From assembly GCA_030698565.1 (NCBI GenBank), contig JAUYJS010000003.1, positions 142,187 to 186,566 on the forward strand: a stretch of 44,380 nucleotides of DNA. Direction: 5' to 3'. This DNA comes from Candidatus Shapirobacteria bacterium. GTDB taxonomy: Bacteria; Patescibacteriota; Microgenomatia; UBA12405. Below are positions 11,355-32,052 of this stretch, one piece after another. The position numbers and the translations under genes were made by a program. Each line of letters starts with the position of its first letter. The first letter of the stretch is position 1. Under the pieces are notes generated by a model. That model saw only the letters and a program-made list of their open reading frames with translations. It ran no database searches and had not been told where the DNA came from.

Positions 11355-12146
11355 TTAATTTAAATCAAAAACAATATTACCCTGAATATCAGTCCTTTTT
11401 ATTGTGACTCCATATTTTTCCAAGTTTTTTAGAACCTGGTCTTTTGGATGACCAAATTTATTATTTTTGCCAACACTAATAACTGCAATTTGTGGTTGAA
11501 TCACTTTTAGTAGATCCTCACTTGTAGCTGTATCCGACCCATGGTGCGACACTTTTAAGACATCTATCTTTCTATTCATTCTGTTTTGCAAAATCCGCCA
11601 AGCTATTTTATCTTCTACACTGCTAGGCGCATCACCAGTTAATAAAAATTTCTTATCCTTATAACTAAGTAAACCTACCACCGACATATCATTATTATCT
11701 AATCCCCCGTTTTCTTCATTTTCTTCAGGACTTAATATCTCAAAACTAATCAAACCAAATTTAATTAAATCATTTTGGGCTAAATTTGTAGAATAATTAA
11801 TTTGTTCAAACTTACCCTTTGGCTTGCTACTACTATAAACACTATCAATCTTATAACTTTTTAAGATATCTCTAATACCGCCGGCATGATCTTCATCCCA
11901 ATGAGTCACTACTACTGCCTCAATCTTCCTATCCCAAAAGGGTACAAAATTTTCCAAACAGCTTAACATCTTTTTATTTTCTGCTCCAGTATCAACCAAC
12001 ATTTGAGTATTTTTATGACTTATTAATACCCCATCTCCTTGCCCCACATCACAAAAAATTATCCGATATTTATCATCTGGCCAGACCGTTATTATAAAAA
12101 TTAACAAAAGAAATAAACTAATTAAAATTAAAATTTTATTTCTCAT
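11355..12146 (-). CDS. comEC: ComEC/Rec2 C-terminal metallo-beta-lactamase domain as a separate ORF
   Basis: HWDEDHAGG (HxHxDH) and SHHGS motifs, with an N-terminal TM helix. Confidence 0.75.
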   Translation of the reverse strand: MRNKILILISLFLLLIFIITVWPDDKYRIIFCDVGQGDGVLISHKNTQMLVDTGAENKKMLSCLENFVPFWDRKIEAVVVTHWDEDHAGGIRDILKSYKIDSVYSSSKPKGKFEQINYSTNLAQNDLIKFGLISFEILSPEENEENGGLDNNDMSVVGLLSYKDKKFLLTGDAPSSVEDKIAWRILQNRMNRKIDVLKVSHHGSDTATSEDLLKVIQPQIAVISVGKNNKFGHPKDQVLKNLEKYGVTIKRTDIQGNIVFDLN

Positions 12147-13005
12147 GTGATCTTTTCAAAATAAAACTAAAAATTATCAAATACCAACCCCAAAACAACC
12201 ACCAATTAAAATTAATATTGGCACTCACCCAATTCATACTACCCAACCCATCTATTATCACCGCCATATATTTCAGCATCGGATAAATTGCCCACAAAAT
12301 TATTTCCCCAATGATTGGCAAAAAAATTCCAATCAGTGTTCCCGCAAACCCAACTAAAGTTATAGTTTCGACTAATACCAAAACTAAAACATTGCTTATT
12401 GGTGAAATTAAACTTATCTTTCCAAAAATCAAAGCCAAAATTGGTGAAATTAAAAGACTCACCCAAACCACTGTTCTACTTTGCAAAATTATTTCTTCTC
12501 TCATACACATCTTCTTTCCATCGGGTTTAAATACCATATCCACGCTGATTACGCCAAAGAATGCCATAAAACTCAACCAAAAACTTACCTCTTTTATTAT
12601 CTGCCAACTAAATAAAATCATTATTAAAACCGTCAACCCAAAACCCCTACCAATATTATATTTCCTCCCCAAAATTTGAGCCCAATAAAATATTGACACC
12701 AAAATTGCTGCCCGAACTACTGGTATTTCCCAACCACTTATACCTACATACCACCAGATAATAAATAAAGTTAAAATAATAATCCGCTTTCGACCCAAAT
12801 ATTTAGCTAAATTTTCAATTAAAGTTTTACTAATTAGCATGACATTAGTGCCACTAACTACCACTAAATGTATCAAACCAGTCTGTTTTAGGTTTTCATA
12901 AAAAGTATTATCAAAACCACTTTTGTCTCCCAAAAGCATCCCTGCCAACAATCCCGCCTCTCTAAAAGGCAATGTTTGGTAAATGAAATCAATCATTAAA
13001 CTCAT
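12136..13005 (-). CDS. comEC: ComEC/Rec2 competence membrane-channel domain as a separate ORF
   Basis: Polytopic membrane protein. LLGDKSG...GLIHLVVVSGTNV is the Competence-domain signature. Overlaps the MBL ORF by 11 nt. Confidence 0.7.
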   Translation of the reverse strand: MSLMIDFIYQTLPFREAGLLAGMLLGDKSGFDNTFYENLKQTGLIHLVVVSGTNVMLISKTLIENLAKYLGRKRIIILTLFIIWWYVGISGWEIPVVRAAILVSIFYWAQILGRKYNIGRGFGLTVLIMILFSWQIIKEVSFWLSFMAFFGVISVDMVFKPDGKKMCMREEIILQSRTVVWVSLLISPILALIFGKISLISPISNVLVLVLVETITLVGFAGTLIGIFLPIIGEIILWAIYPMLKYMAVIIDGLGSMNWVSANINFNWWLFWGWYLIIFSFILKRSHEK

Positions 13006-13559
13006 AAACCGATTTGATCTTTTATTTTTAAAAACATTTTTTCAGCAATCCCCGGCACCAATTTTATTTCCTCAACGCTTTTAAACCCGCCATTTTTTGT
13101 CCGATAATCAATTATCTTTTGGGCCAAGCTCGGACCAACTCCTGATAATTTATCCAATTCCTCTAAACTTGCGTTATTGATCCCAATCTGTAGGGGCGAT
13201 TCATGAATCGCCCCTACATTAGGTATAAAAATCTTCTGCCCATCATTCAAAATCTGCGCTTGGTTAATATTTTTTTCGACCCATTCCAAATCTGCCTCCG
13301 CCGACAAACCACCAGCCATTACCAATATCTCGCTTATCCTTGAACCCCGGTCTAATTTATAAACTCCTGGTTTAATCACCTCGCCCTCTATATCAATAGT
13401 TACTTTATTATCAACTTGTACATCACTTTTTATTAACTCGACTTTCTCAGTTGGCATTAGTTTCTCTTTAAAATTAATTCCAACTCCTACTGCAACCAAA
13501 CCAATTCCTAGTAATAACATCATGTCTATCCATTTCCAGTTTTTAGTAATTTTTATCAC
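13002..13559 (-). CDS. comEA: ComEA DNA receptor (SLBB plus helix-hairpin-helix) with one in-frame palindrome
   Basis: GEVIKPGVY SLBB motif, C-terminal LSGVGPSLAQKIIDYR HhH motif; ATGA overlap with comEC. Confidence 0.8.
   Translation of the reverse strand: MIKITKNWKWIDMMLLLGIGLVAVGVGINFKEKLMPTEKVELIKSDVQVDNKVTIDIEGEVIKPGVYKLDRGSRISEILVMAGGLSAEADLEWVEKNINQAQILNDGQKIFIPNVGAIHESPLQIGINNASLEELDKLSGVGPSLAQKIIDYRTKNGGFKSVEEIKLVPGIAEKMFLKIKDQIGL
13190..13217. repeat. Family A palindrome inside comEA
   Basis: Identical 28-mer, translated VGAIHESPLQ in the linker between the SLBB and HhH domains. Confidence 0.9.
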
Positions 13560-13624
13560 ACTAAAATCTTAACACTTCTGTCCCCGCTTGATTGTCGCTA
13601 AAAAATCCATAATATTATAGTAGT

Positions 13625-14275
13625 ATGCCTCAAATCGTACCCGCCCTTATTTTTGGTTTTTGTTCTTTACTCGCCTATCTTTTTTCGATCACGGCATTAG
13701 TTAACTTCGCCCCACAACTTTTAGCCCTGTCTGCTATTATTTTTCTTCTAATTTTATTTAAACAAAAAACATTTTCTCTCTATTCTATTTCTTTTATTGT
13801 TAGCCTTATCATTTTTACTACTGGTGGCCTTAATTCCCCCGTCTTCTTTTTAATATATTTTTTGCTTTTTACGGTAGCTTTTCAAAACCCACCCAGTACT
13901 ACTTTGGGATTTTCTTTGATTTTAATTATTCTATTATCCCAATCACTAAATTCTTCAGCTTCATTACTCCCCTTATTTTCTTTACTCTTTATTACCCCAT
14001 TGGCCTGGTTTGTTGGTCGGCAATATTTAGATAACCAAAAACTAGGCAGCTTGGTTTCTAAAGATGAAACCGAAGTATTACTTTGGCTATCATTAAATTT
14101 CAAAAATTCGATAATCAAAATAATCGATTCGGTTTCAATTTTAATGTCTACTGCCAAACTATCGCCTTCACAAAAAGAACAATTAGACAACATTAACCAC
14201 GAATCTAAAACCTTATTAAAATCCTCCCAAAAACTTTCTCGGGAAATTGATCAGTCAACTGACGATGAAGACTAA
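13625..14275 (+). CDS. Polytopic membrane protein with a HisKA-like H-box tail and no ATPase domain
   Basis: About five TM helices, then QLDNINHESKTLL, which resembles the SHELRTPL phospho-acceptor box. The ORF ends about 30 aa later. Confidence 0.4.
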   Translation: MPQIVPALIFGFCSLLAYLFSITALVNFAPQLLALSAIIFLLILFKQKTFSLYSISFIVSLIIFTTGGLNSPVFFLIYFLLFTVAFQNPPSTTLGFSLILIILLSQSLNSSASLLPLFSLLFITPLAWFVGRQYLDNQKLGSLVSKDETEVLLWLSLNFKNSIIKIIDSVSILMSTAKLSPSQKEQLDNINHESKTLLKSSQKLSREIDQSTDDED

Positions 14276-15023
14276 AATATTAGTTTTACTTTCTTTTGCA
14301 TTTTTATTTTTTTTATTTAAAAAAAATATTTTAGCTCAATCTTTTTCTTCCTCTTCCTACAAAATCCAATGGGGCAATTTCAATATGACTGCTGGTAAAA
14401 AAACTTCAAGTAGCTACCAACTTACCGACACTGTGGGTCAAAATGCTCCAGGAAAATTCAATAATACTGGTTATATCTTAAAATCCGGTTTTCAATATAT
14501 TTACGACACCTTCTTTTATTTCTCTTTTCAGATTGACGATTTAAGTCTTGATTTTGGCAGTCTTGTCCCGGGTATTGGCACTACTCAAACTAATATAATC
14601 ACCATATCTGCCCCATCGGGCAATGGTTATCAAATTATGGCGGTCGAGAATCATCCACTTCGTCAAAGTTCCGGCACCACCATCCCCGACACCAAATGTA
14701 ACTCCGACAGTTGCAACAAAACTACGTCTGCAGTTTGGGATAGTTCAACTGCATATGGTTTTGGATTTAATGCCATTGGTATAAATAGTAGCGGCGCAGT
14801 CACCAATATCGGCACCTCAAACTATTTTACCGATTCTACTTATTTCCGTCCTTTTGCTAATGCCACCAATACCCCAATTGATGCTCCCCAAATTATCATG
14901 TCAGAAAACTCACCCATCAAAAATCGATCAGCCAAAGTAACATATAAAATCAACATATCGGCGATTCAGTCAGCTGGTAATTACCAAAATGGAATTAATT
15001 TTATTGCCGTACCCAAATACTAA
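14265..15023 (+). CDS. Secreted surface-operon protein P1 (paralogue of P3)
   Basis: Signal peptide MKTKILVLLSFAFLFF...AQS. Shares IPDTxC..C and C-terminal AGNYxN motifs with 16199-17665. Confidence 0.6.
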   Translation: MKTKILVLLSFAFLFFLFKKNILAQSFSSSSYKIQWGNFNMTAGKKTSSSYQLTDTVGQNAPGKFNNTGYILKSGFQYIYDTFFYFSFQIDDLSLDFGSLVPGIGTTQTNIITISAPSGNGYQIMAVENHPLRQSSGTTIPDTKCNSDSCNKTTSAVWDSSTAYGFGFNAIGINSSGAVTNIGTSNYFTDSTYFRPFANATNTPIDAPQIIMSENSPIKNRSAKVTYKINISAIQSAGNYQNGINFIAVPKY

Positions 15024-15025
15024 AT

Positions 15026-15931
15026 ATGAGTAGTTTTAATATTTCATTAACTCCAGCCCAATTCGAATTTACCGCCCAGCCCGGAGCTACTATTATCCAA
15101 GCTTACGAAATTACCAATAACTCCGATAATACGATTTTTTTGTCTTCTTCAGTCGAACCCTGGATCCCCTCAGGAATTGATGGCAACGTTAGTTACGCCA
15201 ATATCATTGCCAACCCAAAAATTATTTTTTCTCTCAATAATGCTGACTTGAATTTAGGACAAGGCTTTAATCTTCAACCTCAAGAAAAACGTCAACTGGT
15301 TTTAAAAATCAAAGTCGACCCACAATCCGAGCTTAAAGATCATTATTATACTTTTTTTATTAACCAAACTTCAATCGGTACACTCGAAAGTCAGCAAAAT
15401 TCTACCCAGGCCAGCGGTAAAATTGGTTCTCACATTCTTTTATCTGTTTCCAATTCCGAACAACAATCAAGTAAGGCTGAAATAAAAAATTTTAAAGTTT
15501 TTCCCAAAATAAAAGATATATTTTTAACTCCGATAAACTTCCAAGCCGAGATCAATAATAGCACTGATTATTTTTTTAAAACTGACGGCCAAATTACCAT
15601 CAACAAAAACGATCTCAAAACTAATGAAACAAGATTAATGCCCAGTAATATTTTGGCTCACCATTCCCGTTCCATTTCTTGTATCGCCAACTCCACTGAT
15701 CCCAAAGCACCGCCAACCAGTGTTAATTGCACTCTCAATCCACCTCTTTGGCCTGGATCTTATACCGCCACACTTTCACTCGACCCCTCGATCAGTAGTA
15801 AACCAATCACCGTCTCCTTTTTTGTCTTTCCGTTTTCTTTGATTGGGTTACTTGGTATTATTTTTATTTTATTTTGGATTTTAAAGACCCATCCTTCTGT
15901 ACGGGCGATTCATGAATCGCCCCTACAATAA
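15026..15931 (+). CDS. Surface-operon protein P2, beta-rich ectodomain with a C-terminal TM anchor; tail encoded by a repeat element
   Basis: C-terminal helix FSLIGLLGIIFILFWIL. The last residues THPSVRAIHESPLQ and the stop lie in the family A element. Confidence 0.6.
   Translation: MSSFNISLTPAQFEFTAQPGATIIQAYEITNNSDNTIFLSSSVEPWIPSGIDGNVSYANIIANPKIIFSLNNADLNLGQGFNLQPQEKRQLVLKIKVDPQSELKDHYYTFFINQTSIGTLESQQNSTQASGKIGSHILLSVSNSEQQSSKAEIKNFKVFPKIKDIFLTPINFQAEINNSTDYFFKTDGQITINKNDLKTNETRLMPSNILAHHSRSISCIANSTDPKAPPTSVNCTLNPPLWPGSYTATLSLDPSISSKPITVSFFVFPFSLIGLLGIIFILFWILKTHPSVRAIHESPLQ
15899..15926. repeat. Family A palindrome variant (GTACGGG...)
   Basis: 27/28 identity to the consensus; supplies the last 10 codons of P2. 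Confidence 0.85.
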
Positions 15932-15965
15932 AAAAATCCCCACAATTTTCCCCAATGTCCCATCC

Positions 15966-16039
15966 GTAGGGGCGACCCTGGCGGTCGCCCTATTATCTAA
16001 TCCATATTTATTCAGGGCGGGGGCTAGCCCCGCCCCTAC
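15966..16039. mobile_element. REPIN-like composite: hairpin B plus a ~21-nt AT spacer plus hairpin C, with inverted GTAGGGGCG...CGCCCCTAC ends
   Basis: B is GGGGCGACC-CTGGC-GGTCGCCC; C is GGGCGGGG-GCTAGC-CCCGCCC. The same ~74-nt unit recurs at 19930, 32163 and 33094. Confidence 0.75.
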
Positions 16040-16133
16040 AACCCTAAATTTACCCACCCTCTTCCCTTTATCGTGCCAATATCTACCTAATTTTATATTT
16101 ATAATTTATCACACAAAGATATTTAACCCCCCC

Positions 16134-16163
16134 TTGACAAACCTCTCTCTTTTTCATTATATT
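16134..16163 (+). promoter_or_regulatory. Sigma-70-like promoter candidate for P3
   Basis: TTGACA (16134-16139), 18-nt spacer, TATATT (16158-16163), about 35 nt upstream of ATG 16199. Confidence 0.4.
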
Positions 16164-16198
16164 TAATTAATATTGTCGACAAATTTTTGGCGGAAAAA

Positions 16199-17665
16199 AT
16201 GAAAAAAATTATTAACAGAGTTTTGGTTTTGAGTGTACTACTCTTTGTCATCCAGTTTTATATCAAAAACCACCCTTTAGAATCGGCCCCATCAACAAGT
16301 GTTAAGGATGTTTTATCTAGTTCTCAACTGTCTTATTTTGCCCGAATCGGTACCGGTACCACTGCTCTAGATACTATTATCGAAGTGTCTAATTCTGGCA
16401 ATCCATCAATCAACACCAATAACCTTTTTGTGGGCGACACTATCGGTATTGGCCGCAGCTCTGGTTTAGGAATTGATAGTTATGTTGTTCGGGATATTGG
16501 TAATACGGCTATCTTTCAAATAAATTCTGCCCTCGCTGTCAACAATGCCAAAGTTGGAAACATGATTATTGCCACTAGATCGGCCATTCATACAATCTAC
16601 TTCACTCCAAAAAGTAGCGTCGCTGGTGGTGCCTGGCAATTTTTAATAAAAGCAACTAGTCGAACAGGAGAAAACCACCAAGACGGTATTCCCGATCAAC
16701 AAGGTTTTGATTTAGGCTCGACTATCCCTTCAGGCGCTGCTACTGGTTTAGGTACCCGTCTCCAAGCCGCCGATATTTCCTGTCCTTTTGGCACCGCCAG
16801 TGTCGGCACCACTGCAGTAGTTAACTCTAATTCTTATCATGTGGTTACCTGTACTCTAGGAGCCGGCATCACCAATCCCATTGATGTCGGTGTCACTATG
16901 GTCATTGGTCGAGAACTTGCTAGTGGTAGCCAATTAATTAATCCAAGCGCCGCCCTAAACCACACCGAAGGCCAAGCTGACACCACTGCTGATGTTTATA
17001 CTTTCATGCTCCGCCACTTGGATTCCTCAAGTGTTCTTCTTGATAGTGATACTACTACCGGCAAAATTGCTGTGGTTGAATCAGTCCGAGTCACGGCTAC
17101 TGTCGACCCGACAATAACTTTTTATATTGATAATATTGGCGTTTCTGCTCCAAGTATGTCGCTTTGCGGTACCACCTTAGCTACCACAGCAGACAACACT
17201 ACTTCTACATCTGTGTCCTTTGGTTCCTTAAACCTTAATGCTTTTAATAATTTAGCCCAAAGACTCTCTTGTATTACCAATGCCGACGGTGGTTATTCGG
17301 TCACGGTTTATGAAACAGGTGTAATGAAAAATATTAATAGTGGCACCACTATTCCCGACACTAATTGCGACGGAGGCTGCAACACTACCACCGCGGCTGC
17401 ATGGGCTACCGATGTCGGTGCCAATGGTTCCGAGTGGGGTTATACCATGCAAAATACTAGTGTTGGTGTCACAATTTTTAATTACCAATCAGGTTGGAAA
17501 GCTTTTGGTATTGGTGCAGCTAACGCTAAAGAAATTATGAAAAATACAAATACACCAGGATCAATTGAGCAAGCCTACATTTGTTATCGAGTTACCGCCA
17601 GTACTATTCAAGAAGCTGGTAATTATGAAAACCACTTAGTTTATACCGCCACAGCTACATTTTAA
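16199..17665 (+). CDS. Secreted surface-operon protein P3 (large paralogue of P1)
   Basis: Signal-like MKKIINRVLVLSVLLFVIQ; IPDTNCDGGCN and C-terminal QEAGNYENHLVYTATATF motifs. The track start at TTG 16187 is less likely than ATG 16199. Confidence 0.6.
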   Translation: MKKIINRVLVLSVLLFVIQFYIKNHPLESAPSTSVKDVLSSSQLSYFARIGTGTTALDTIIEVSNSGNPSINTNNLFVGDTIGIGRSSGLGIDSYVVRDIGNTAIFQINSALAVNNAKVGNMIIATRSAIHTIYFTPKSSVAGGAWQFLIKATSRTGENHQDGIPDQQGFDLGSTIPSGAATGLGTRLQAADISCPFGTASVGTTAVVNSNSYHVVTCTLGAGITNPIDVGVTMVIGRELASGSQLINPSAALNHTEGQADTTADVYTFMLRHLDSSSVLLDSDTTTGKIAVVESVRVTATVDPTITFYIDNIGVSAPSMSLCGTTLATTADNTTSTSVSFGSLNLNAFNNLAQRLSCITNADGGYSVTVYETGVMKNINSGTTIPDTNCDGGCNTTTAAAWATDVGANGSEWGYTMQNTSVGVTIFNYQSGWKAFGIGAANAKEIMKNTNTPGSIEQAYICYRVTASTIQEAGNYENHLVYTATATF

Positions 17666-17673
17666 AAAACAAA

Positions 17674-18654
17674 ATGACAAAAATAACTAAAACATTTACA
17701 TTAATTACAGCCTTATTTTTATTTTCTAGCTCCTTTTATCAAATAAATGCCCAGTCTACTTCCGGTATTTCCGCCATACCTCCCCGATTAGAAATTACCG
17801 CTCTACCAGGTAAAACTATCAGTAAGGAAATTAAAGTTAGGAACGAGTCGAATGTTGAAAGAATATTGTCTACTTCAGTTAAGGATTTTATTGTCACCGA
17901 CGACAAAGGCACTCCGATTCAACTAGATTCTAATGTTTCCCAAAATAACCGTTGGGCTGCCAGTTCTTGGATTCATATTTCGGAAACTAAAATCAAGCTT
18001 AAAGCTGGTGAAACCAAATCATTGATTTTAACAGTCATTGTCCCCGACAATGCTCTGTCTGGAGGTCATTACGCCATGGTACTTCACAGTCCTAAAAACG
18101 AAACCATTCTTACCCAAACCGGATCAGCTGTCGAAACAAATGTTGGAACACTAGTTTATATTACTGTTCCAGGTGATATCAAACAAAATGCCCAAATTAA
18201 GGATTTTTCTGCTCCAAAATTTTTGGAATTCGGACCAGTCAAATTTATCTCCAACATCACCAATCTTTCCGATATACATATCGCTCCTGACGGTGTCATT
18301 GCTATTACCAACTGGTTTGGAGGCAATACCGCCAACATGGCTTTAGACAAAATAAATATTTTCCCCAATACTAGTCGTACTTTTAATAATATCTTAGATA
18401 AAAAATGGTTATTCGGACGCTATAAAGCCCAAATTTTAGCCGGCTACGGAACAGCCGGTGGTTCCTTAGTTGCAACCGTTTTCTTCTGGGTAATTCCATG
18501 GAGATTAATTATTTTAATTCTTATTTTTATCGCTCTAATAATTGCTTTAATTATCTTAAATAAAAACAAACCTCACCGCCAATCTCACGAAACAGTTGAA
18601 GATTTGGAAAAAGAATTGGAAGATTTAAAAAATAAATATAAAGACAATAAATAA
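17674..18654 (+). CDS. Surface-operon protein P4: signal peptide, Ig-like beta ectodomain, C-terminal TM and charged tail
   Basis: Signal ...SFYQINAQS; IPPRLEITALPGKTISKEIKVRNES beta-sandwich-like start; TM LIILILIFIALIIALIIL then ELEDLKNKYKD. Confidence 0.6.
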   Translation: MTKITKTFTLITALFLFSSSFYQINAQSTSGISAIPPRLEITALPGKTISKEIKVRNESNVERILSTSVKDFIVTDDKGTPIQLDSNVSQNNRWAASSWIHISETKIKLKAGETKSLILTVIVPDNALSGGHYAMVLHSPKNETILTQTGSAVETNVGTLVYITVPGDIKQNAQIKDFSAPKFLEFGPVKFISNITNLSDIHIAPDGVIAITNWFGGNTANMALDKINIFPNTSRTFNNILDKKWLFGRYKAQILAGYGTAGGSLVATVFFWVIPWRLIILILIFIALIIALIILNKNKPHRQSHETVEDLEKELEDLKNKYKDNK

Positions 18655-18655
18655 A

Positions 18656-19471
18656 ATATATCTATTTTTAATTTTATTTTCTCTAATTTTTCCCCAATCA
18701 TCATTTGCCCTAGATAAAGTTTCTTCCGCCAATATCACCGTCTCTGCCTCTATCGGAGAAAATCAAGTTACTATCACCGGTTTTACTTCCCCCCAATCTC
18801 GCGTCGAACTTAGTAGTCCCAAAACTTACGCGGTTACTTATAGTGACCCCACTGGCTTCTTTGAATTCGATCGAACTTTACTTCCCAAAGATCCTTCTGA
18901 TCTTTGTCTATCTTCTTTTGATGACTACAATCGTCAATCCACCCCCGTATGTATTCCACCACCCCCACCTACTAATTATCAAACCGACATCGGTCCAATT
19001 ATTTTGCCACCAACCATCGCTCTCAACGCAGCCACGATTCAACCCGGCAGCACTGTCGCCGCTTCAGGCCAAAGCTTACCCAATTCCCAAATCGAAATTT
19101 ATTTTTACAAAGTCGACGATAGTGCCTTGTCCTTTCCCAAAGCTGCCATGGCCTATTCTTTACCCATTCTAACTACAAAATCAGACCATCAAGGTAATTT
19201 TAATTTAAACTTACCCACGGCTTATTCGAGTAATTATCGTCTTTATGTTGCCACCAAATATCAGGATAATTTATCCCCCAAATCCAACACTCTGCTCTAT
19301 GTCATGCCTTCATTAATTTGGCTTTTTTGGTTAGAAAATAAAATATTAATTATTTTTTTGCCACTTTTTATTTTTACCCTTAGCTTTTTTATTTATCTTC
19401 TTGTCCAATATTCTTTACCCAAAAAACATTATCTCCCTGCGATACGAAATTTTTTACCGGCTGTTTGTTAA
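18656..19471 (+). CDS. Surface-operon protein P5, with no canonical start codon upstream of its signal peptide
   Basis: Hand translation of the frame open from 18650 gives IYLFLILFSLIFPQSSFALDKVSSANITVSAS..., continuous with track ORF 19004-19471. C-terminal TM present. The first ATG/GTG/TTG in frame is TTG 19004. Confidence 0.45.
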   Translation: MYLFLILFSLIFPQSSFALDKVSSANITVSASIGENQVTITGFTSPQSRVELSSPKTYAVTYSDPTGFFEFDRTLLPKDPSDLCLSSFDDYNRQSTPVCIPPPPPTNYQTDIGPIILPPTIALNAATIQPGSTVAASGQSLPNSQIEIYFYKVDDSALSFPKAAMAYSLPILTTKSDHQGNFNLNLPTAYSSNYRLYVATKYQDNLSPKSNTLLYVMPSLIWLFWLENKILIIFLPLFIFTLSFFIYLLVQYSLPKKHYLPAIRNFLPAVC

Positions 19472-19499
19472 TTTCCCTTTTCCAGAATATACTAAATAA

Positions 19500-19916
19500 G
19501 TGGCATCAAAAAAAATTATCTTCGTAATTATATTTCTTTCAATTTCGCTGATAGCTTCTATGTTCTTGGTACTAAGAACCACTGTTTTTTTTGGCAAAGC
19601 TACCAGTTCCAACAGTTCACCAATCGTTTTGGAAAATTCCTATCTCTTTGCCTCGCCTATCCAAGCCAAAGCCGATGGCAAAGAAAAAATTAGAATCACC
19701 GCCTTTCTTCTGGATGGTCAAGGTTTAGGCATTTCCAACCTCAAAGTCTCACTTCAATTGCCCCAAAATGTCTCCGTCCTCGCCATCCAATCTGTTACTG
19801 ACGATACCGGTAAAGCCGTCTTCGACCTTTCTTCTAGTGTTGCTAAACAATTAGACATTGCCGCCCAGGTCAACAACAAAACCATCCCCCAAAAAGTTAA
19901 GATTGTGTTTTATTAA
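19500..19916 (+). CDS. Small membrane-anchored Big_1-like (bacterial Ig-like) protein P6
   Basis: GTG start, TM, then ADGKEKIRITAFLLDGQGLGISNLKV...TDDTGKAVFDLSS, typical of invasin/intimin-type Ig domains. Confidence 0.55.
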   Translation: MASKKIIFVIIFLSISLIASMFLVLRTTVFFGKATSSNSSPIVLENSYLFASPIQAKADGKEKIRITAFLLDGQGLGISNLKVSLQLPQNVSVLAIQSVTDDTGKAVFDLSSSVAKQLDIAAQVNNKTIPQKVKIVFY

Positions 19917-19929
19917 AACCCACCCTTCT

Positions 19930-20003
19930 GTAGGGGCGACCCTGGCGGTCGCCCCATTATTTGATCCATTATTATTCAGGGCGGGGGCTAGCCCCGCCCC
20001 TAC
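19930..20003. mobile_element. REPIN-like composite B+C (copy 2)
   Basis: GTAGGGGCGACCCTGGCGGTCGCCCC-ATTATTTGATCCATTATTATTC-AGGGCGGGGGCTAGCCCCGCCCCTAC. Confidence 0.8.
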
Positions 20004-20014
20004 AGAATCAAAAA

Positions 20015-23000
20015 ATGTTATCCTTTTTATACACACTTATGCCTCGGTTACCTCATAAAATTATTTCTATTGGCAATCATTTTTCCTACAAATCCCTTTT
20101 CATTATTCTCTTCTTTTTACTAATTGGTATTGTGGCCTTATTTAAATTTTATCCTCAGAATAAAATTTCTGCTGCCTGGTGGAATGATGGCTGGGGGTAT
20201 CGGAAAGCGGTTTCTATCACTAATTCTAGTAGTACTATCACTAACCAATATGTAAAAATTACCCTTGATACGTCTGCTTTAATCACAGCTGGTAAAATAC
20301 AAAACAACTGCAACGACATCCGTGTTACAAACATCAATGGAAAATTATTAACTCACTTCATTGATGGTGACACTGAATATGATTGCAATGATACTGATAC
20401 ATCCATATATGCTCTAGTTGATTCTATCCCTTCCAATGGAACCACAATTTATATTTATTATGGTAATCCTTCAGCAGAAAATAACGAACCAGTATTAGGT
20501 TCATCAAATTACCCAGCCATTTCATGTCGCAACATTCTTGAACATAGAAGTGATAGTAATGGAACTGGAACATATTATATTACCCCAACAGGAAACCTGA
20601 GCGATAAAATACAAGTCTCCTGTGACATGAGTTACTCTAGTGGCGGGTGGATTCTAGTTTGGCATGGACTTCCATCCGAAGCTATGGTTAGAAACACTAG
20701 TAATGAAAGTGTTAGTTTAAGTAACGACATCATTTTTAACGAGATGCGTATGGAAGGAGTTAATTTAAACTTTAATGTTATCAGCTCTACTGTTGAAACC
20801 GCTAAACTAGCAAAATCCATTCCTCAACATTACTACGAAGTAGATAACACTTCAGATGCTACCAATCCTAAAGTCAATTTTTATGATCTAGACGGTAACC
20901 AAGATGTTCTTTTGTCAAATAACTATTTTATGTATGGATACGGCAATAGTTGGCGAGTCTTTTATACTTGTATAAATGTATCTGGCATAGATTACACTTA
21001 TTTGGGAGGGTATAGTCCAACATGCACTCCCAGAAGTTCATTTAATACTATTAGTGTTAGTTGTACAGGTGGTGGAAACAATTACTGTAATGGTAATGCT
21101 AGAAATACTTCACCAAAAGATAGTGGACTTGGACTATCACTATACGAATACCAAGAAACAAAGGTTTATATTAGAGAAAGCAATATTACTCTTGATGTTA
21201 ATCAAAGTGCTGGCTCACCTTCCACCGAAGAGCAATCCACCGCCCCCGTTGCCTATTGGAAATTTGACGAAGGTGTTGGTACTACTGCATACGATTCCAC
21301 TTCAAACCAAAATAATGCCACTATAAGTGGAGCAGCTTGGAAAACAGAAGATCAATGCATTTCTGGAAAATGTTTAAATTTTCCCAGCAGCGGAAGTATC
21401 ACCGCACTAAGCAATGCTCGTTTAAATTTCAGCACCAATAGTTTCACTATTTCCGCCTGGACACTTCTCCGCGATTATACCTATCCCAAATCAACCTTTA
21501 TGATTTCCAAAGAAGTTAATAATTGTTATGCAACGGGAAACCCTGGTTTTTATATTGGTCACGGTTATCAATCAAACGGCTCAGTCTTTTGTATTAATGA
21601 TGGTACTAATTATATTAATTCAACTCTTACTTATGATTCAGGTTATAAACCAGCCGACACTCAAAATAAATGGACTCATTTTGAATATATATTTGATCGT
21701 ACCGCCGGAAAAATTAAAGTTTATGTCAATGGTATAAAACAATCCAGTGAACTTGATATTTCTTCAGTCACTGGTAGTGTTAATAATTCTAGTAACTTGG
21801 TTATCGGAACACTTCATGGCTGGATGACCGACGGCAAAATAGATGATGTCAAAATTTATCCCTACGCCCGATCTGCAACGCAGATTAAACAGGATTATGC
21901 CGCAGGCAAGGCCCATTCATCTTCAACCAAAGGCACTTCTGTCAACCTCGGCGGCTCTAATCAATCCGGTGACTTTTTATCTAATGGATTGGTTGGATAT
22001 TGGAAAATGGACGAAGGTGTTGGTACAACTACTGCTGATAGTTCTGGGAATGGAAATACTGGAACATTATCAGGAGCTACTTGGTCGAGTGGAAAATTTG
22101 GAATTGGAACAAGTTTTGGAAGTGTCAATAGTAATGTAAGTTTAGGTAGTAGTGCTAATTTAAACACCGGAAATTATTTTACACTATCAGGTTGGTATAA
22201 ATTCAATTCGTTCAAAAGTGAAAACTATTTCTATAATCGTAATGGTCAGTCGGGAACAAGCGGTTTCCATATAGTTTGGATGGCGGGAGCCTCAAGCGAA
22301 ATACGTTATCAATATGCAAACGGTAGTACCTACAATACATTAAATTCTAATAGTCTAAGTTGGAATATTAATCAATGGTATTTTATATCAGTAGTCCACG
22401 ACCTAAATGCAAAAACAATAAATTTTTATCGTGACGGAGTCAATGTAGGAACTGCAAGTTATACAAACACAGCTCTCCCTGTTAGTAGCGGGACTGCATT
22501 TTTAGGAGGATACCAAGGAGATAATCGTTTTGATGGCTCTATTGACGACCTTCGTATTTACAACCGTGCCCTCTCCCCTTCCGAAGTTTCCCAACTTTAC
22601 AATTGGGCACCCGGACCAAAAGCCTACTATAATTTTGATGAGGGTTCAGGTTCTATTCTTAATGATCTATCAGGAAATAATTTTTCTGGTGTACTCAACA
22701 ATGTATCTTTTATTCCAGGTAAATATGGTAGGGCTGGAAAATTCAATGGAAGTGTCGATAGTTATGCCGACATAAACTACCAAGCCATCAATGGCCTTCA
22801 AGATTTTACTACTTCTTTCTGGATGAAATCGTCTGGTAGTGCAGATGGAATTATTTCAGGTGCAGGTAGTAATAGTGACAATGAACTTTTTATTGCTTAT
22901 CAACAGAATTTTGATATCCGAACTAGAAATGTTAATGTTGACACAAACATAAGCACCAATGATGGAGAATGGCACTTCATTTCAGTCACTCGAAACCAAT

Positions 23001-25297
23001 CAACCGGAAACATGGTTTTATATGTTGATGGGATTTTAAAAAACCAAGGCATATCGGGAACTCTGCCATTAAACATATCTTCTGGAGGCTTTATTTTAGG
23101 TCAAGATCAAGATAGTGTTGGTGGTGGTTTTTCCGCTAGCCAATCATACGATGGTCTGTTAGATGACCTCAAAATTTATAATTATATTCGCACTCAAAGA
23201 CAAATAATCGAAGACATGAACGCCGGCCACCCTATTGGCGGCTCCCCTGTTGGCTCCCAACTGGCTTATTGGAAATTTGACGAAGGCTATGGTTCAGCTA
23301 CTTATGATTTCAGTTCTCACAATTACACTGGCACTTTTGGCACCGGCAACTCTGCTCCCACTTGGACCAATGATGGCAAATTTGGCAAAGCTTTGAGTTT
23401 TGTAGACGGTCAATATATCCGAGGACTTTCAGATATTCTTTTGGGTTTGTCTCAAATCACAATTTCTGCTTGGGTTAAACCCATATCCACTACTTATATT
23501 TTCCAACATGGTTCCAGCTACAGCATTAACGGTTATATTAATTATTTTAGGGTTAACTCAACCGGATCAATGACTATTGATATCGAAGATGCAATTACTA
23601 CAGCCCATTTTATCCCTTCAACATCGACGGGTTTGGTCAGTATGAATAGTTGGAGTTACGTCAGTGTAGTGATAAGAAGTAATTTGGTTGATTTTTATGT
23701 CAATGGCAAAAAAGTTTATACCAGCAGTACCTTCAATGGTGCTTACCCATTTCTTAGTACATCTGATGGTTATAAAAACATCGGTCGTTACAATTACAAC
23801 AATAGTGCTATCAGTTATTCTTCAGGCATTATCGACGAAGTCAAAATTTATAATTCTGCATTAACCGACAACGATATTTTACTTGACTATAACCAAGGTA
23901 AATCAATAGTTATGGGTTCCAAAGGTACTGAATCAGATGGTACTACCAATTCATTTTCCGCCGCTCGCGAATATTGCATTCCAGGCGACACTTCCACTTG
24001 TAATCCTCCAATAGCTGAATGGAAAATGGACGAAGGCGTTGGCACGACTGCCTACGATACTAGTGGTAATAATTTACATGGTATTTTAGGCTCAGGCAAT
24101 TCCTCCCCCACCTGGGCCCAAGGCAAAACCGGGTCGGGATTAAATTTTGATGGGATTAATGATTACATTCAAACATCCTCAGCCATTAATTTAGGTTCAA
24201 GTTTTACTATTGGATTTTGGATGAAACCCACTAACCTTCATAATTACGGCGACCCTCTTTCAGCCGGAACTGGCGATAAGTATTTAACTTTTGTCACATA
24301 TGCCGATGGTCATATGGGCTACGGTGTAGGTATTGGTACTTCTTGGGGTACATCAATCAATACCACTGCCGGCAAATTTTCTAATAACCAATGGTATTAC
24401 ATTACCGGTACTTCCAATGGCATAAACACTGAATTGTTTGTCAACGGAATCAGTCAAAATACCGCTCCTAACAATATATCAATTAATCAAGTTATTAATG
24501 TTGGTGCCAGATTGGCAACTGGATATTGGTTTGCCGGAGCAATCGATCAAGTCAAAATCTACAACTACGCCCGCACACCAGCTCAAATATCCTGGGACTA
24601 CAATCGTGGCAAACCAATTGCTTGGTGGAAATTTGATGAATGCCAAGGAACCGCCATTGGTGATTGGAGTATGAATGGAAGCACTGGAACTTTAAATATT
24701 GGTGCCTCTGGTACCCAAAATTCTGTCGGCACTTGTTCTGTCGGCACCTCCGCCGCATGGACCAACGGGGCGAGTGGTAAGCTCAACTCCTCGCTAAGTT
24801 TTGATGGAACAGATGATTATGTTTCAACCAGCATTACTAGAGGATATCTTGGTAGTAGGCTTTCTGTCGCAGTTTGGTTTAAATTCACCGGATCATCAGG
24901 AGACAGTTACAGGCCAATAATTGGAGGTTATGATTCAGGTGCTGGAACAGAATTTTTTATCGGTAAAAATTCAGGCAATACGAATATAGGGCTTCAAGAC
25001 GGAAATTATATTAGCAATATGGTTTCTGGGTCTAATGCTTTTAATGGCAACTGGCATCATTTAGTTTATACTTATGATTCTGGAACAGGTAAAGTTTATT
25101 TAGATGGAAGCTTAAAGAATACTCAGGCTTTTTCAAAATGTAACGACAGTGAATATATCTACATAGGAAAAGAGGATGAAAGTGGAGGATATTTCTTCCC
25201 CGGCCAAATTGATGATGTTCAAGTTTATAACTACGCCCTCACCGCCACACAAGTCAAGGATGTCTATAATAATGGAGCCGTGAATTTTTCAAATTAA
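20015..25297 (+). CDS. Giant surface protein G1: TM anchor, DUF2341, degenerate fibrinogen-like domain, six LamG (Laminin_G_3/ConA-like) domains
   Basis: WWNDGWGYRKAVSITN...IYIYYGNPSA (DUF2341). Six W(K/N)FDEGxG...D.SG...G starts, each closing with (I/L)DD(V/L)(K/R)IYN. The track start at 19961 lies inside the repeat element, so ATG 20015 or 20039 is more likely. Confidence 0.8.
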   Translation: MLSFLYTLMPRLPHKIISIGNHFSYKSLFIILFFLLIGIVALFKFYPQNKISAAWWNDGWGYRKAVSITNSSSTITNQYVKITLDTSALITAGKIQNNCNDIRVTNINGKLLTHFIDGDTEYDCNDTDTSIYALVDSIPSNGTTIYIYYGNPSAENNEPVLGSSNYPAISCRNILEHRSDSNGTGTYYITPTGNLSDKIQVSCDMSYSSGGWILVWHGLPSEAMVRNTSNESVSLSNDIIFNEMRMEGVNLNFNVISSTVETAKLAKSIPQHYYEVDNTSDATNPKVNFYDLDGNQDVLLSNNYFMYGYGNSWRVFYTCINVSGIDYTYLGGYSPTCTPRSSFNTISVSCTGGGNNYCNGNARNTSPKDSGLGLSLYEYQETKVYIRESNITLDVNQSAGSPSTEEQSTAPVAYWKFDEGVGTTAYDSTSNQNNATISGAAWKTEDQCISGKCLNFPSSGSITALSNARLNFSTNSFTISAWTLLRDYTYPKSTFMISKEVNNCYATGNPGFYIGHGYQSNGSVFCINDGTNYINSTLTYDSGYKPADTQNKWTHFEYIFDRTAGKIKVYVNGIKQSSELDISSVTGSVNNSSNLVIGTLHGWMTDGKIDDVKIYPYARSATQIKQDYAAGKAHSSSTKGTSVNLGGSNQSGDFLSNGLVGYWKMDEGVGTTTADSSGNGNTGTLSGATWSSGKFGIGTSFGSVNSNVSLGSSANLNTGNYFTLSGWYKFNSFKSENYFYNRNGQSGTSGFHIVWMAGASSEIRYQYANGSTYNTLNSNSLSWNINQWYFISVVHDLNAKTINFYRDGVNVGTASYTNTALPVSSGTAFLGGYQGDNRFDGSIDDLRIYNRALSPSEVSQLYNWAPGPKAYYNFDEGSGSILNDLSGNNFSGVLNNVSFIPGKYGRAGKFNGSVDSYADINYQAINGLQDFTTSFWMKSSGSADGIISGAGSNSDNELFIAYQQNFDIRTRNVNVDTNISTNDGEWHFISVTRNQSTGNMVLYVDGILKNQGISGTLPLNISSGGFILGQDQDSVGGGFSASQSYDGLLDDLKIYNYIRTQRQIIEDMNAGHPIGGSPVGSQLAYWKFDEGYGSATYDFSSHNYTGTFGTGNSAPTWTNDGKFGKALSFVDGQYIRGLSDILLGLSQITISAWVKPISTTYIFQHGSSYSINGYINYFRVNSTGSMTIDIEDAITTAHFIPSTSTGLVSMNSWSYVSVVIRSNLVDFYVNGKKVYTSSTFNGAYPFLSTSDGYKNIGRYNYNNSAISYSSGIIDEVKIYNSALTDNDILLDYNQGKSIVMGSKGTESDGTTNSFSAAREYCIPGDTSTCNPPIAEWKMDEGVGTTAYDTSGNNLHGILGSGNSSPTWAQGKTGSGLNFDGINDYIQTSSAINLGSSFTIGFWMKPTNLHNYGDPLSAGTGDKYLTFVTYADGHMGYGVGIGTSWGTSINTTAGKFSNNQWYYITGTSNGINTELFVNGISQNTAPNNISINQVINVGARLATGYWFAGAIDQVKIYNYARTPAQISWDYNRGKPIAWWKFDECQGTAIGDWSMNGSTGTLNIGASGTQNSVGTCSVGTSAAWTNGASGKLNSSLSFDGTDDYVSTSITRGYLGSRLSVAVWFKFTGSSGDSYRPIIGGYDSGAGTEFFIGKNSGNTNIGLQDGNYISNMVSGSNAFNGNWHHLVYTYDSGTGKVYLDGSLKNTQAFSKCNDSEYIYIGKEDESGGYFFPGQIDDVQVYNYALTATQVKDVYNNGAVNFSN

Positions 25298-25314: not shown

Positions 25315-25571
25315 GTAGAGACGCACTGTGTGCGTCTCTTTATTTAAAATAAATATTTTATTGTTTGTAGAGACGCATACAATGCGTCTCTACAAAACAC
25401 AACATATCCAATGTAGGGGCGATTCATGAATCGCCCCTACCAACCCGTCATTGCGAGGACAAAGGACGAAGCAATCCCATTCTGTGTAGAGACGCGCTGC
25501 AGCGCGTCTCTACAAATATTCCACCAAATATTTGTTTTTTTCAATGAACAGACACAACGGTCTGTTCCTAC
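25315..25571. repeat. Ordered array of six hairpins: E, E, A, F, E, D
   Basis: E 25315-25339, E 25367-25393, A 25413-25440, F 25447-25478 (GTCATTGCGAGGACAAAGGACGAAGCAATCCC), E 25486-25513, D 25546-25571. Confidence 0.85.
25318..25345 (+). terminator. Intrinsic terminator formed by a family E hairpin plus a T-tract, downstream of G1
   Basis: GAGACGCAC-TGT-GTGCGTCTC followed by TTTATTT, about 20 nt after the G1 stop. Confidence 0.55.
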
Positions 25572-26572: not shown

Positions 26573-26610
26573 GAACAGACACAAAGGGGCGATTCATGAA
26601 TCGCCCCTAC
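26573..26610. repeat. Chimeric hairpin: left half of family D fused to family A lacking its GTA
   Basis: GAACAGACACAAA|GGGGCGATTCATGAATCGCCCCTAC. Confidence 0.7.
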
Positions 26611-26621
26611 AGAATCAAAAA

Positions 26622-26738
26622 ATGTTATCCTTTTTATACACACTTATGCCTCGTAATAAACCCACCACTAACATTAGATCCCCCTTTTTGAGGTCGTTAG
26701 ATCCTCGAAGAGGAGGGATTATAGGGGGTTTTAAATGA
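26622..26738 (+). CDS. 38-codon upstream ORF ending in an ATGA overlap with the G2 start
   Basis: MLSFLYTLMPRNKPTT... The first 11 codons are identical to the G1 N-terminal extension; AGGAGG lies about 18 nt upstream of ATG 26735. Confidence 0.3.
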   Translation: MLSFLYTLMPRNKPTTNIRSPFLRSLDPRRGGIIGGFK

Positions 26739-29700
26739 CCCGCTTTTCCTATAAATCCCTTTTCATTATTCTCTTCTTTCTACTGATTGGTATTGTGGCC
26801 TTATTTAAATTTTATCCTCAGAATAAAATTTCTGCTGCCTGGTGGAATGATGGTTGGGGGTATAGGACGAGGGTTGATGTTACCAATTCTTCCGGTTCTG
26901 ATCTTAGCAATCAAAGAATTAAAATTACGCTAAACACCTCTACTCTTATTTCCACTGGCAAGATGCAATCGGATTGTGATGATATTAGAGTTACTAGTCA
27001 AAGTGGTAAACTCCTTGACCATTGGGTAATAAATTGCAATAGTTCTTCATCTTCAGTCTATGTAAAAATGGAGGATCTTCCTAGCTCGGGGTCCAATGTG
27101 TTTGTTTATTATGGCAATCCTTCAGTTTCCAATATTGAGAATACATTGGGATCAACCAACTACCCAGGAACATCATGTCAAATGATGCGTGATCAGGGCA
27201 GTGTTACTTCTGATGGATTATATTACGTCACTCCAGGTGGCAACGATGATAATAAAATCCAGGTTTATTGTGACATGACTACTGATAGTAGTGGTTGGTC
27301 TTTAGTCCTTAACCACGTCTCAAGCTCTACACCTGGACCAAATCCCAACTGGAATCAAGTTGTGAATAATATTAATACATCAGGCACTTACAGTTCTGAC
27401 TTAACTTCGTTTTCCCTTTTTCTTGGAGTAAAGCATTGGAATTATCTAGGTGATTACATTAGAGTTGAAGTTGGATCAAGTCCAACAAGTATTACCAAGC
27501 GCTATGATTACACCAGCTTTTCATTAGATACTGGAAACTACTATGCGCTCACTATGTCTGGTGAAACTCAGATCACGGGAACTGGCTCACCGGGAATTTA
27601 TTCATATCATAATAACAGACCTTTAACTACAACAGATGCGGATCATGACGCCAGTGGAAGCAATTGTGCCAATAGCTATAACTATGCTTGGTGGTATGGT
27701 TCTTGTTGGAACGGAAGTTTTTGGGGTAGTACCGTTAGTCACCAAGATCGAGCATTTTGGACAGGGTCTACCTCTGACTACCATAACTACGGAGGACTAT
27801 GGCTCAAGGGAGACGATTCTATGGAAAATATCTCCACCGGTACCCCTGCCACCGAGGAACAATCCCTTGCCCCCATCGCCTATTGGAAATTTGATGAAGG
27901 TGTTGGTACTACTGCTTATGATTCCAGTTCAAGTGCCTTAAACGGTCTTATTAGTGCTGCCACCTGGCAAACTGAAGACCAATGTATGACTGGAAAATGT
28001 CTCTACTTTAACGAGTCAACAAGTTATGTAAGCTTAGGCACCAATAATACCCTCACTAAAAATATAACCAATATAACTATCAGCGCTTGGGTTAAATTGG
28101 GTAAAGATTTAGGTACCGTGTCCGATAATTATGAAATTATTTCCAACGAATCTTACCAAAATTATGGCTATTTGTTCAGAGTGGAAAACACTACCTCCAC
28201 TGCTACCGCCGGTAAAATTCATTTTAGGTTTAGCCAGGCGGGGGCCAGCACCAATGTTACCGCTCAATCCAATTCTTTTCCCAATGATCACCAATGGCAT
28301 TATCTCGTCGGAACTAAAAATGGTACAGTAGGAAAAATTTATTTAGATGGTAAAGAGATGACACTCTCTACAAATCAATCACTTTCTAATCCAGTGGATG
28401 CCTCCGGCGCTACTCAAATTGGCGGTATATCACAACGATGGAATGGCTTCCTTGACGACGTTAAAGTTTATCCCTATGCTCGATCTGCAACGCAGATTAA
28501 ACAGGATTATGCCGCAGGTAAGTCCCATTCATCTTCCACCAAAGGCACCTCGGCTAATTTAGGTTCTAGTAACCAAAATCTTTCCGCTCTCACCGACGGC
28601 CTAATTGGTTATTGGAAAATGGATGAAAACGTCGGAACAACAACTGTCGATTCTTCGGGAAATAATAATACTGCCACTCTCGGCACCGGCAATTCCGCCC
28701 CCACCTGGTCACCTGGAAAATACGGGGTTGGTTTAAGTTTCAATGGAACAACAAATTACATCAAGGTCTCTTACGATGCTTCATTAAAAAAGCCAGTGAG
28801 TGCAATTACAATGGGAGCATGGGTGAAGCTCAATAGCACCGGAGGTTGGCAGAGTGTGGTCCAATATCCTCAACAAGATGGAAGCCATGTCAGCACTTAT
28901 TTTGATTGGGCAATATATGTTGGTTCAGGGGGAGGGCTTCACACAAGAATTGATGGAGAAAGCTCAGGAACCTATGGTACTATATCTTGGGGTGAGTGGA
29001 CACATGTTGCTATAGCATGGGATGGTTCTTCTACTTTGGTTAAGTACTATATAAATGGAGCGTTAGTTGGAACCTATGATGGAACGAAGACAAGTATAGT
29101 ATATGACAACAACAACCCTGTTTATTTTGGACAAAACGCCGGAGGAGGTGAAAAACTCAGCGGTTCCCTCGACGAAGTCCGTATCTACAACCGTGCCCTC
29201 TCCCCTTCCGAAGTTTCCCAACTCTACAATTGGGCACCCGGACCAATTGGTTATTGGGATTTTAATGAAAATGTAGGCACTACTGCTTATGATAAAAGTG
29301 GTAACAACTACAGTGGATCATTAGGCGCTGATAATTATTCTCCTACATGGGACATTGGAAAATATGGTTCTGGATTAAAATTTAATGGCAATCAATTTGT
29401 AAATTTAACCAGATTTGCCAATAAAGGCATTTCCGTAAATTTATCAAATTTTACAGTTTCAACTTTTATTAAGCCAACATTAATTAATGGAAACTCAAAA
29501 GCCATTTATGTCGAAGGCGCCGGTGGTTCAACTGGTAGTTCTTGGGCAGGTATTTTTTTGGTTAATAATGAAATTAGAGTTCATTTTAAAACTTATAATA
29601 CTGGCGACTTAATTTTATATGATACTGTTGGAGCAAATGTTACTGCTAATAATATTTATTATATTACAGTAACTCGAACCGGAAACAATTTCACTACATA

Positions 29701-32035: not shown

Positions 32036-32052
32036 AATTAATATTATCCATT

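Follow-up and report, generated by a model that had tools for sequence, protein, structure and literature searches.

The 74-nt unit at positions 19930-20003 of the 44,380-nt stretch of DNA analysed here (the window) is likely to be a head-to-head heterodimer of two different hairpins, B and C, each tagged with an outward-facing GTAG, belonging to the class of non-autonomous elements that comprises repetitive extragenic palindromic sequences (REPs), bacterial interspersed mosaic elements (BIMEs) and REP doublets forming hairpins (REPINs). Four such doublets were found, all on the + strand and exactly where a preliminary description had placed them: copy 1 at 15966-16039 (74 nt), copy 2, which we use as the reference, at 19930-20003 (74 nt), copy 3 at 32163-32236 (74 nt) and copy 4 at 33094-33169 (76 nt). 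Gapped pairwise identity among the four units is 89.5-98.6%. The B core GGGCGACCCTGGCGGTCGCCC (21 nt) and the C core with its tag GGGCGGGGGCTAGCCCCGCCCCTAC (25 nt) each gave four matches in the window at three or fewer mismatches, every one of them inside a doublet, and the number expected by chance from dinucleotide-preserving shuffles was 0.00 for either core. Within the window, B and C are always paired.

Copy 2 consists of GTAG (19930-19933), hairpin B (19933-19955), an AT-rich spacer (19956-19978), hairpin C (19979-19999) and CTAC (20000-20003). Hairpin B has a GC stem of 8-9 bp and the 5-nt loop CTGGC, and hairpin C a GC stem of 8 bp and a 5-nt loop that reads GCTAG or GCCAG. The spacer between them measures 23-25 nt rather than the roughly 21 nt reported previously. 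Inverted-repeat outer ends had also been described, and the GTAG/CTAC ends do bear this out over 9 nt (GTAGGGGCG/CGCCCCTAC), which is the only sequence that the two arms have in common; the exception is copy 3, which starts with GTAA. GTAG thus stands 5′ of B in three of the four copies and CTAC, equivalent to GTAG on the - strand, 3′ of C in all four. As single-stranded DNA the doublets were predicted to fold with -22 to -24 kcal/mol (z = -4.2 to -6.0 against shuffled sequence) and as RNA with about -40 kcal/mol, z ranging from -4.1 to -6.0 over DNA and RNA folds together. In both the minimum-energy and the centroid folds of either strand, B and C form two separate hairpins with no pairing between the arms, and GTA(G) and (C)TAC at the outer edges remain unpaired; each DNA strand therefore displays one REP in the active orientation. 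The arms accordingly show two of the hallmarks of REPs, a short (20-40 nt) GC-rich stem-loop and an unpaired 5′ GTAG.

The spacers of all four doublets are homologous and the 3′ flanks are unrelated, which suggests that the doublet has been copied as a unit to at least three to four sites. The flanks of copies 1 and 2 are unrelated apart from a short leader. Upstream of copies 2-4 lies a common C-rich leader of about 17 nt (consensus TTAAwwCCrCCCwTTCT), represented at copy 2 by AAAACCCACCCTTCT (19915-19929, + strand), whose 3′ end is the CT directly 5′ of GTAG; a CT dinucleotide occupies this position in three of the four doublets. Copies 3 and 4 are embedded in a larger repeat, with 108 of 124 positions identical over the 120 nt upstream, and both belong to clusters of different hairpin types: copy 3 to the cluster D-A-B-C-F at 32051-32273, 3′ of the second of two LamG genes, and copy 4, whose spacer carries a 2-nt indel and whose C loop reads CCAGC, to the cluster E-A-B-C at 32985-33169. 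The four doublets occupy intergenic positions, copies 1-3 following + strand open reading frames (ORFs) of the same orientation and copy 4 standing between divergent genes. One frame had been noted as fully open, and frame 0 is indeed open on both strands in all four copies, the peptide quoted for copy 2, VGATLAVAPLFDPLLFRAGASPAP(T), being correct. Since the doublets are intergenic and the indel of copy 4 shifts the frame between its arms, the open frame has no coding meaning.

Copy number was estimated from the assembly graph of a metagenome that holds this organism at about 33x depth. The unitigs spanning the doublet had depths of 58-69 against about 33 for the genome, corresponding to two copies each, and every branch leaving the doublet in the graph led to one of the four copies in the window. 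Because unitig depths and graph branches account for these four copies only, the genome holds about four B-C doublets, all within 17 kb.

Comparison with a sister strain (contigs L245-L247, 95-97% identical in the flanking genes) revealed rapid turnover, none of the four B-C doublets being intact there. At site 1 the B arm and 4 nt were replaced by TAAATTCATTTCAGG with the spacer and C retained, and the adjacent palindrome of type A was replaced by a different palindrome, GTAGGAACATGCCATGGCATGTTCCTAC. At site 2 the sister strain has 533 nt in place of the 99-nt segment that contains the doublet (window 19915-20013), the exchange ending at the leader on one side and at 20004-20013 on the other. 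This 533-nt insert, at the orthologous site L245 4122-4583, looks like a small mobile endonuclease cassette; it contains a gene for a 135-aa DUF559 (Vsr-like endonuclease) protein between 23-nt, mutually inverted hairpins TCTCCCCTTGACTTAAGGGGAGA. Site 3 lacks its D, A and B-C elements, and site 4 is absent together with an NYN-domain gene next to it; this gene is also missing from related strains in the runs X3, X4 and X6. The wider superfamily of GTAG...CTAC hairpins was also absent from the 10 kb upstream in a sister strain.

The converse situation was found between window positions 19461 and 19472, where the sister strain carries a whole doublet of another kind, E'-E, and the window site is empty. 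The window has its own E'-E doublet at 25315-25393 (+ strand), which starts with GTAG-AGACGCAC..., continues through a 24-nt AT spacer and ends in a full palindrome, ...GCGTCTCTAC. A whole E'-E doublet is thus an indel between strains, which speaks for copying as a unit. Runs X3 and X5 carry a compact B/C element between the same two positions, again not present in the window. The E'-E insertion (L245 3535-3627) is flanked by an imperfect 8-nt direct repeat (TTCGTTAAT / TTGTTTAT), which may have arisen as a target-site duplication or have served as microhomology for a deletion in the lineage of the window.

These comparisons show that elements have been gained, lost or swapped within 3-5% sequence divergence, that whole doublets can behave as indels and that single arms can be lost as well. 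B and C are separable, because the sister strain has C without B at the orthologous site 1. The claim that the two always occur together therefore applies to this genome and fails in its relative. Doublets from these metagenomes also differ by compensatory changes in both stems, GGGCGACC/GGTCGCCC versus GGGCAACC/GGTTGCCC in B and GGGCGGGG/CCCCGCCC versus GGGCAGGG/CCCTGCCC in C, and since the paired changes keep the stems, these are under selection for pairing.

Head-to-head pairing is a general feature of this genome and not peculiar to B and C, since three further pairs, E'-E, D-E and F'-F, share it. D-E is located at 33922-34002 (+ strand) with a 30-nt AT-rich spacer, and F'-F at 10190-10248 (strand not assigned), where GTAC and CTAC enclose two arms separated by 7 nt, in frame in the N-terminal part of the leucyl-tRNA synthetase (LeuRS) gene. 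In the head-to-head pairs the left arm has GTAG only and the right arm CTAC only. In total, about 30 GC-rich hairpins bounded by GTAG or GTAC and CTAC were found in the window, falling into several sequence families. For the tag GTAGGGGCG, 23 occurrences were counted where 0.05 would be expected, and among the dinucleotides 5′ of the tags CT is the most frequent (8/30). Two types, A (GTAGGGGCGATTCATGAATCGCCCCTAC) and D (GTAGAGACGCGCTGCAGCGCGTCTCTAC), are full palindromes in which GTAG is paired to CTAC. A-type copies number ten; one lies at 32100-32127 (strand not assigned) and others start at 9417, 9549, 13190, 15899, 25413, 26585, 33031 and 36464, the same repeat family also listing a non-A hairpin at 35035. 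The copy at 26585-26612 (strand not assigned), truncated at its 5′ end, lies upstream of the paralogous LamG gene, where it takes the position of doublet copy 2 relative to the shared 3′ flank AGAATCAAAAAATGTTATCC....

Several of these hairpins are located within genes. LeuRS (- strand) has two in-frame VGAIHESPLQ inserts of type A, at aa 249-258 and 293-302 (window 9416-9445 and 9547-9578), and the F'-F doublet forms its aa 26-43; ComEA (13189-13218) has NVGAIHESPLQ in frame at aa 114-124, and a GTAG palindrome (35944-35971) lies in frame inside the ORF 35783-36295. The palindrome inserts of LeuRS correspond to residues absent from Thermus LeuRS. An 88% identical relative (L242) retains the insert at 9416, and the runs X3-X5 show in-frame indels at each of the two LeuRS sites (18 nt lost; 96 letters for 63).

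To follow the B hairpin beyond this lineage, we took an exact-core census of species-representative genomes, which gave at least 119 loci with 139 sites, among the matches listed mostly from Chloroflexota (Ktedonobacteraceae, Anaerolineae) and also from Clostridia and others. GTAG precedes 96 of the 139 exact cores and GTAC 10. A head-to-head partner ending in CCCCTAC was found at no fewer than 17 of the 139, usually GGGCAGGG...CCCTGCCCCTAC, that is, of the C type; 26 sites have an upstream CTAC-ended hairpin. A doublet from Anaerolineales is 77% identical to copy 1 over 79 nt, including a 22-nt AT-rich spacer, and an Anaerolineae genome (L080) contains reiterated arrays of B with its partner. 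Most exact B cores in other phyla are singletons. Frequent solitary occurrence of B and C elsewhere, with no excess of pairing, had been named beforehand as the finding that would speak against a paired element, and the outcome is mixed: B mostly stands alone in other phyla, with the head-to-head partner at 17/139, and is paired at all four sites here. Clustering of the ORFs near the B sites yielded no recurrent neighbouring gene family.

The A palindrome is widespread too. Its exact core was found in at least 120 metagenome contigs of very diverse organisms, with GC contents of 28-67%, and 107 of 127 A-core sites have at least one tag; the B and C cores were absent from these 120 contigs. The exact 28-nt palindrome was also observed in ten predicted viral contigs of IMG/VR (L250-L259, 54-65% GC), in two copies in three of them, each contig having 2-8 GTAGGGGCG tags. 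Neither the B hairpin nor RAYT-like ORFs were found in these ten viral contigs, RAYT denoting the REP-associated tyrosine transposases of the Y1/HUH family.

The hairpin types are linked to RAYT-family genes in other organisms. In 6 of the 120 contigs picked by the A core, the palindrome lies inside or adjoins a Y1_Tnp/RAYT-like ORF (Pfam Y1_Tnp), the best NCBIfam match of these ORFs being 'REP-associated tyrosine transposase', below its curated cutoff. One such RAYT gene (L191) additionally has inverted, GTAG-outward REPs on either side, which is the classical REPtron arrangement. When an A-bearing RAYT stripped of its insert served as protein query, at least 1,126 homologues (subfamily 1) were returned, several of them named RayT by JGI and UniRef, and in 99 of the best 120 an A-type peptide follows directly after the HUH motif (67 VGAIHELP, 18 VGAIHESP). 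All three loci picked by protein had an A-type palindrome in or flanking the gene, namely within the RAYT ORF in Candidatus Falkowbacteria (a bacterium of the candidate phyla radiation, CPR) and in Thermoflavifilum, and flanking the gene in an Anaerolineales genome. The subfamily 1 palindrome, GTAGGGGC(G/A)ATTCATGAAT(C/T)GCCCCTAC, encodes VGAIHE[S/L]PL, and S or L in the peptide goes with the codons GCG/TCG or GCA/TTG, respectively, the palindrome being preserved. Because the S/L change is accompanied by a silent change of the Ala codon that restores pairing, the conserved entity of the insert would seem to be the DNA hairpin.

A second subfamily (at least 7,997 matches) has VGAGSEPAPT, encoded by GTAGGGGCAGGTTCTGAACCTGCCCCTAC with a C-like stem, at the same position after the HUH motif, and in this subfamily many palindromes are expanded, or split to give head-to-head doublets (e.g., VGAGSKPAL...RAGLEPAPT). 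Searching with a short peptide that joins the HUH motif to the B and C peptides recovered a single RAYT pseudogene (L263), in which C and B variants (GGGCAGGGGCAAGCCCTGCCCCTAC and GTAGGGGCAACCCTTGCGGTTGCCCC) stand 16 nt apart right after the HUH motif. A is thus tied to RAYTs firmly, C well and B weakly. Examples of RAYT-embedded palindromes are L260 10289-10316, L261 6283-6310, L176 3001-3044, L186 4789-4874 and L157 495-577, with the proteins P0018-P0256. Together, these data raise the possibility, at present short of probable, that two or more large cross-phylum RAYT subfamilies carry their own REP palindrome in frame after the HUH motif, kept at the DNA level and occurring singly, expanded or split into a doublet, as a built-in 'seed' or self-recognition site. 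In the searchable literature, neither the tag sequence nor the peptides encoded by the hairpins led to a relevant paper, and no description of in-frame REP palindromes in RAYT genes was found there.

How might the B-C doublet have moved? RAYTs bind single-stranded REP DNA with its 5′ GTAG and not the complementary strand, cleave at a CT dinucleotide 5′ or 3′ of the REP hairpin, and use GTAG in a manner resembling the guide sequence of IS200/IS605 elements (PMC8266576). By analogy, a RAYT encoded elsewhere in this genome would bind the single-stranded hairpins with GTAG as guide, cut at the adjacent CT and rejoin the strands, by which doublets and single arms would be moved or exchanged. Interiors could also be swapped between the conserved GTAG/CTAC ends, and such swapping would explain the replacement of A by another palindrome at site 1, the fact that two strains have different cassettes at 19461 although the flanks are similar, and the presence of an A palindrome in the place of copy 2 upstream of the paralogous LamG gene. 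Local duplication or recombination within REP clusters, rather than frequent transposition, may nevertheless account for much of how the four B-C copies spread, since they are few and tightly clustered and copies 3 and 4 have flanks in common.

Several observations weigh against a REP-type element mobilized by a RAYT. The genome has only about four doublets, all within 17 kb and two of them in a segmental repeat of about 195 nt, so that transposition of the B-C unit is not demonstrated, and the high, genome-dispersed copy number of GTAG REPs is not seen. The 44-kb window contained no Y1/RAYT gene (tblastn with E. coli RayT and a custom hidden Markov model, nothing at E ≤ 1), and a RAYT was found in 0 of the 119 loci picked by the B core, the tblastn search with E. 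coli RayT included. Among groundwater contigs compared with the L176 RAYT gene, none had a RAYT at this organism's depth at ≥80% nucleotide identity, the matches being the palindrome alone and a few low-depth fragments of other organisms. The sole link between B and a RAYT, pseudogene L263, is truncated and has its hairpins tail-to-tail rather than head-to-head. Finally, Y1 transposition makes no target duplications, and the imperfect 8-nt direct repeat at the E'-E insertion of the sister strain is unexpected for it.

These points lend some weight to a passive local repeat, spread only by segmental duplication, gene conversion and illegitimate recombination with no dedicated enzyme acting on the doublet. 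Confinement of about four copies to 17 kb agrees with such an origin, as do the 87% identity of copies 3 and 4 over 120 nt upstream, their position as direct repeats on either side of the NYN gene, and the compact element of runs X3 and X5, which resembles a deletion between GGCGG microhomologies. We consider it unlikely all the same, because the flanks of copies 1 and 2 are unrelated apart from the short leader, E'-E doublets occupy non-homologous sites in two strains, and the same hairpins recur with GTAG tags in many phyla as well as in or adjoining RAYT genes. A role at the RNA level is, in our estimate, less probable again: transcribed at gene 3′ ends, the GC hairpins would block 3′ exonucleases or attenuate read-through, as is known for some REPs. 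The position of copies 1-3 downstream of + strand ORFs in the same orientation, the great stability of the predicted RNA hairpins (-40 kcal/mol), compensatory stem changes compatible with selection on RNA, and the preference of REPs for the 3′ ends of genes (Di Nocera et al. 2013, PMC3733652) all fit this role. What speaks against it is that a U-tract after C is missing in three of the four copies, that copy 4 lies between divergent genes, that no Rfam match was obtained at the doublets, and that the units are missing at the orthologous sites of a 95-97% identical strain and are therefore dispensable. An RNA-level role is in any case compatible with a GTAG-tagged REP heterodimer as a secondary effect.

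Two further explanations are far less probable. The hairpin clusters might be cassette recombination sites of the integron attC kind, the doublets serving as boundaries for a tyrosine recombinase; small accessory genes (XRE helix-turn-helix proteins, a HigB/HigA-like pair, an NYN nuclease) do lie between clusters, the NYN gene sits between direct cluster repeats and is absent from sister strains, and an ORF with integrase SAM-like domains is present at 35783-36295. The occurrence of the same palindromes in frame within LeuRS, ComEA and RAYT genes makes this very improbable, and we rejected it because no catalytic domain follows the N-terminal SAM-like domains of this 170-aa ORF and the hairpins have no attC-type core sites. 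Scarcely credible is a protein- or peptide-coding module with one open frame per strand, even though frame 0 is open on both strands of all copies and A-type palindromes are translated within LeuRS and ComEA. An open frame over about eight AT-rich codons is not improbable by chance (about 0.2 for both strands by our own estimate). This reading was discarded as well: all doublets are intergenic, the ORFs overlapping them (15912-16166, and one with a TTG start at 19961) are mechanical calls, and copy 4 has the frame-shifting indel.

The window, with GC contents of 33-45%, encodes MurB, a WecG-type transferase, MreB, a PEGA protein, an M16 peptidase, LeuRS, ComEC and ComEA, as well as small toxin-antitoxin and helix-turn-helix genes (XRE proteins, the HigB/HigA-like pair) and the NYN nuclease, and near-identical sequence was found in groundwater metagenomes only. 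Gene content and habitat point to a low-GC bacterium with a small genome, probably CPR/Patescibacteria-like. Direct repeats of about 195 nt lie on both sides of the NYN-domain gene (32326-32862, - strand; region 32043-33169), and each combines a hairpin of type D or E with an A palindrome and a B-C doublet. The two paralogous LamG genes (19961-25297 and 26735-32035) each encode a surface protein of some 1,770 aa that has six LamG (Laminin_G_3) repeats, and a giant ORF (about 36600-44380) running off the window end contains repeats around GNVGIGTTNP, including a 51-nt tandem array at 41921-42175. A very strong C-over-G skew was observed at 1-20000 and 32000-38000, with (G-C)/(G+C) of -0.13 to -0.46 and genes on both strands, falling to about 0 within the giant repeat-protein genes. 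Rfam searches at the gathering threshold matched two tRNAs in the window and no RNA family at the doublets.

The doublets extend the known GTAG-tagged REP dimers to a streamlined, probably CPR-like groundwater bacterium and provide a clear case of strain-level turnover of REP elements. Of wider value are 28-nt palindromes that are nearly unchanged across many phyla, in frame in the RAYT genes that presumably mobilize them and tolerated in essential genes. The more novel lead is the in-frame REP palindrome of RAYT genes, with the single palindrome and the head-to-head doublet as alternative states. If real, the embedded seed would explain near-identical 28-nt REPs in genomes of 28%-67% GC and in viral contigs, and would fit a streamlined CPR-like genome with intergenic doublets and tolerated 10-aa inserts in LeuRS and ComEA; once confirmed, RAYT-embedded palindromes would offer a testable handle on how REP families are founded and matched to their transposase.

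Among known systems, the preliminary description had compared the B-C unit to REPINs, which, as reportedly defined by Bertels and Rainey in 2011, have near-identical arms forming one long hairpin and are accompanied by single-copy RAYTs. REPIN populations comprise tens to hundreds of copies. The comparison holds for two inverted REP hairpins with a conserved spacer copied as one unit, for RAYT links found elsewhere, and for singletons left behind when one arm decays, of which site 1 of the sister strain is an example. It does not hold for the arms, which differ and fold separately, or for the copy number, about four rather than a population. Failing both the near-identical arms of a long hairpin and the many-copy population, the B-C doublet is not supported as a REPIN in the strict sense. 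The BIMEs of E. coli combine Y and Z REPs in alternating orientation with linker motifs between them. The B-C unit resembles them in having two REP types in inverted orientation and a conserved 23-25-nt linker within mosaic clusters, and differs from them in that the pair shows no tandem reiteration in the window. Unlike those of E. coli REPs, the stems of B and C are perfect and lack the bulge that E. coli TnpA_REP requires (PMC8266576).

GTAG REPs forming head-to-head heterodimers with conserved spacers of 20-100 bp were described by Di Nocera, De Gregorio & Rocco 2013 (BMC Genomics 14:522; PMC3733652), and the doublets share with them short GC-rich stem-loops with terminal GTAG, the placement of GTAG termini on the outside of two arms with different stems and loops, a conserved spacer, and the presence of several families per genome with some copies within genes. 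The Chloroflexi family GTAG-23 of that study is embedded in CCGSSCC...GGSSCGG palindromes, and the same is true of loci L002, L066 and L080. Differences from the REPs in PMC3733652 are the host lineage, a probable CPR bacterium outside the eight phyla listed there, the small B-C family of about four copies with its AT-rich spacer, and the many units of this genome that are full palindromes with GTAG paired to CTAC. The Rickettsia palindromic elements (RPEs) and the intragenic REPs of Opitutus terrae, summarised in the same paper as palindromic repeats that have entered housekeeping genes in frame, are paralleled by the A and F types that lie in frame in LeuRS and ComEA, the B-C doublets being intergenic instead. 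In sum, the B-C unit has more in common with the BIMEs of E. coli than with a true REPIN, and its closest description is a head-to-head heterodimer of GTAG REPs.

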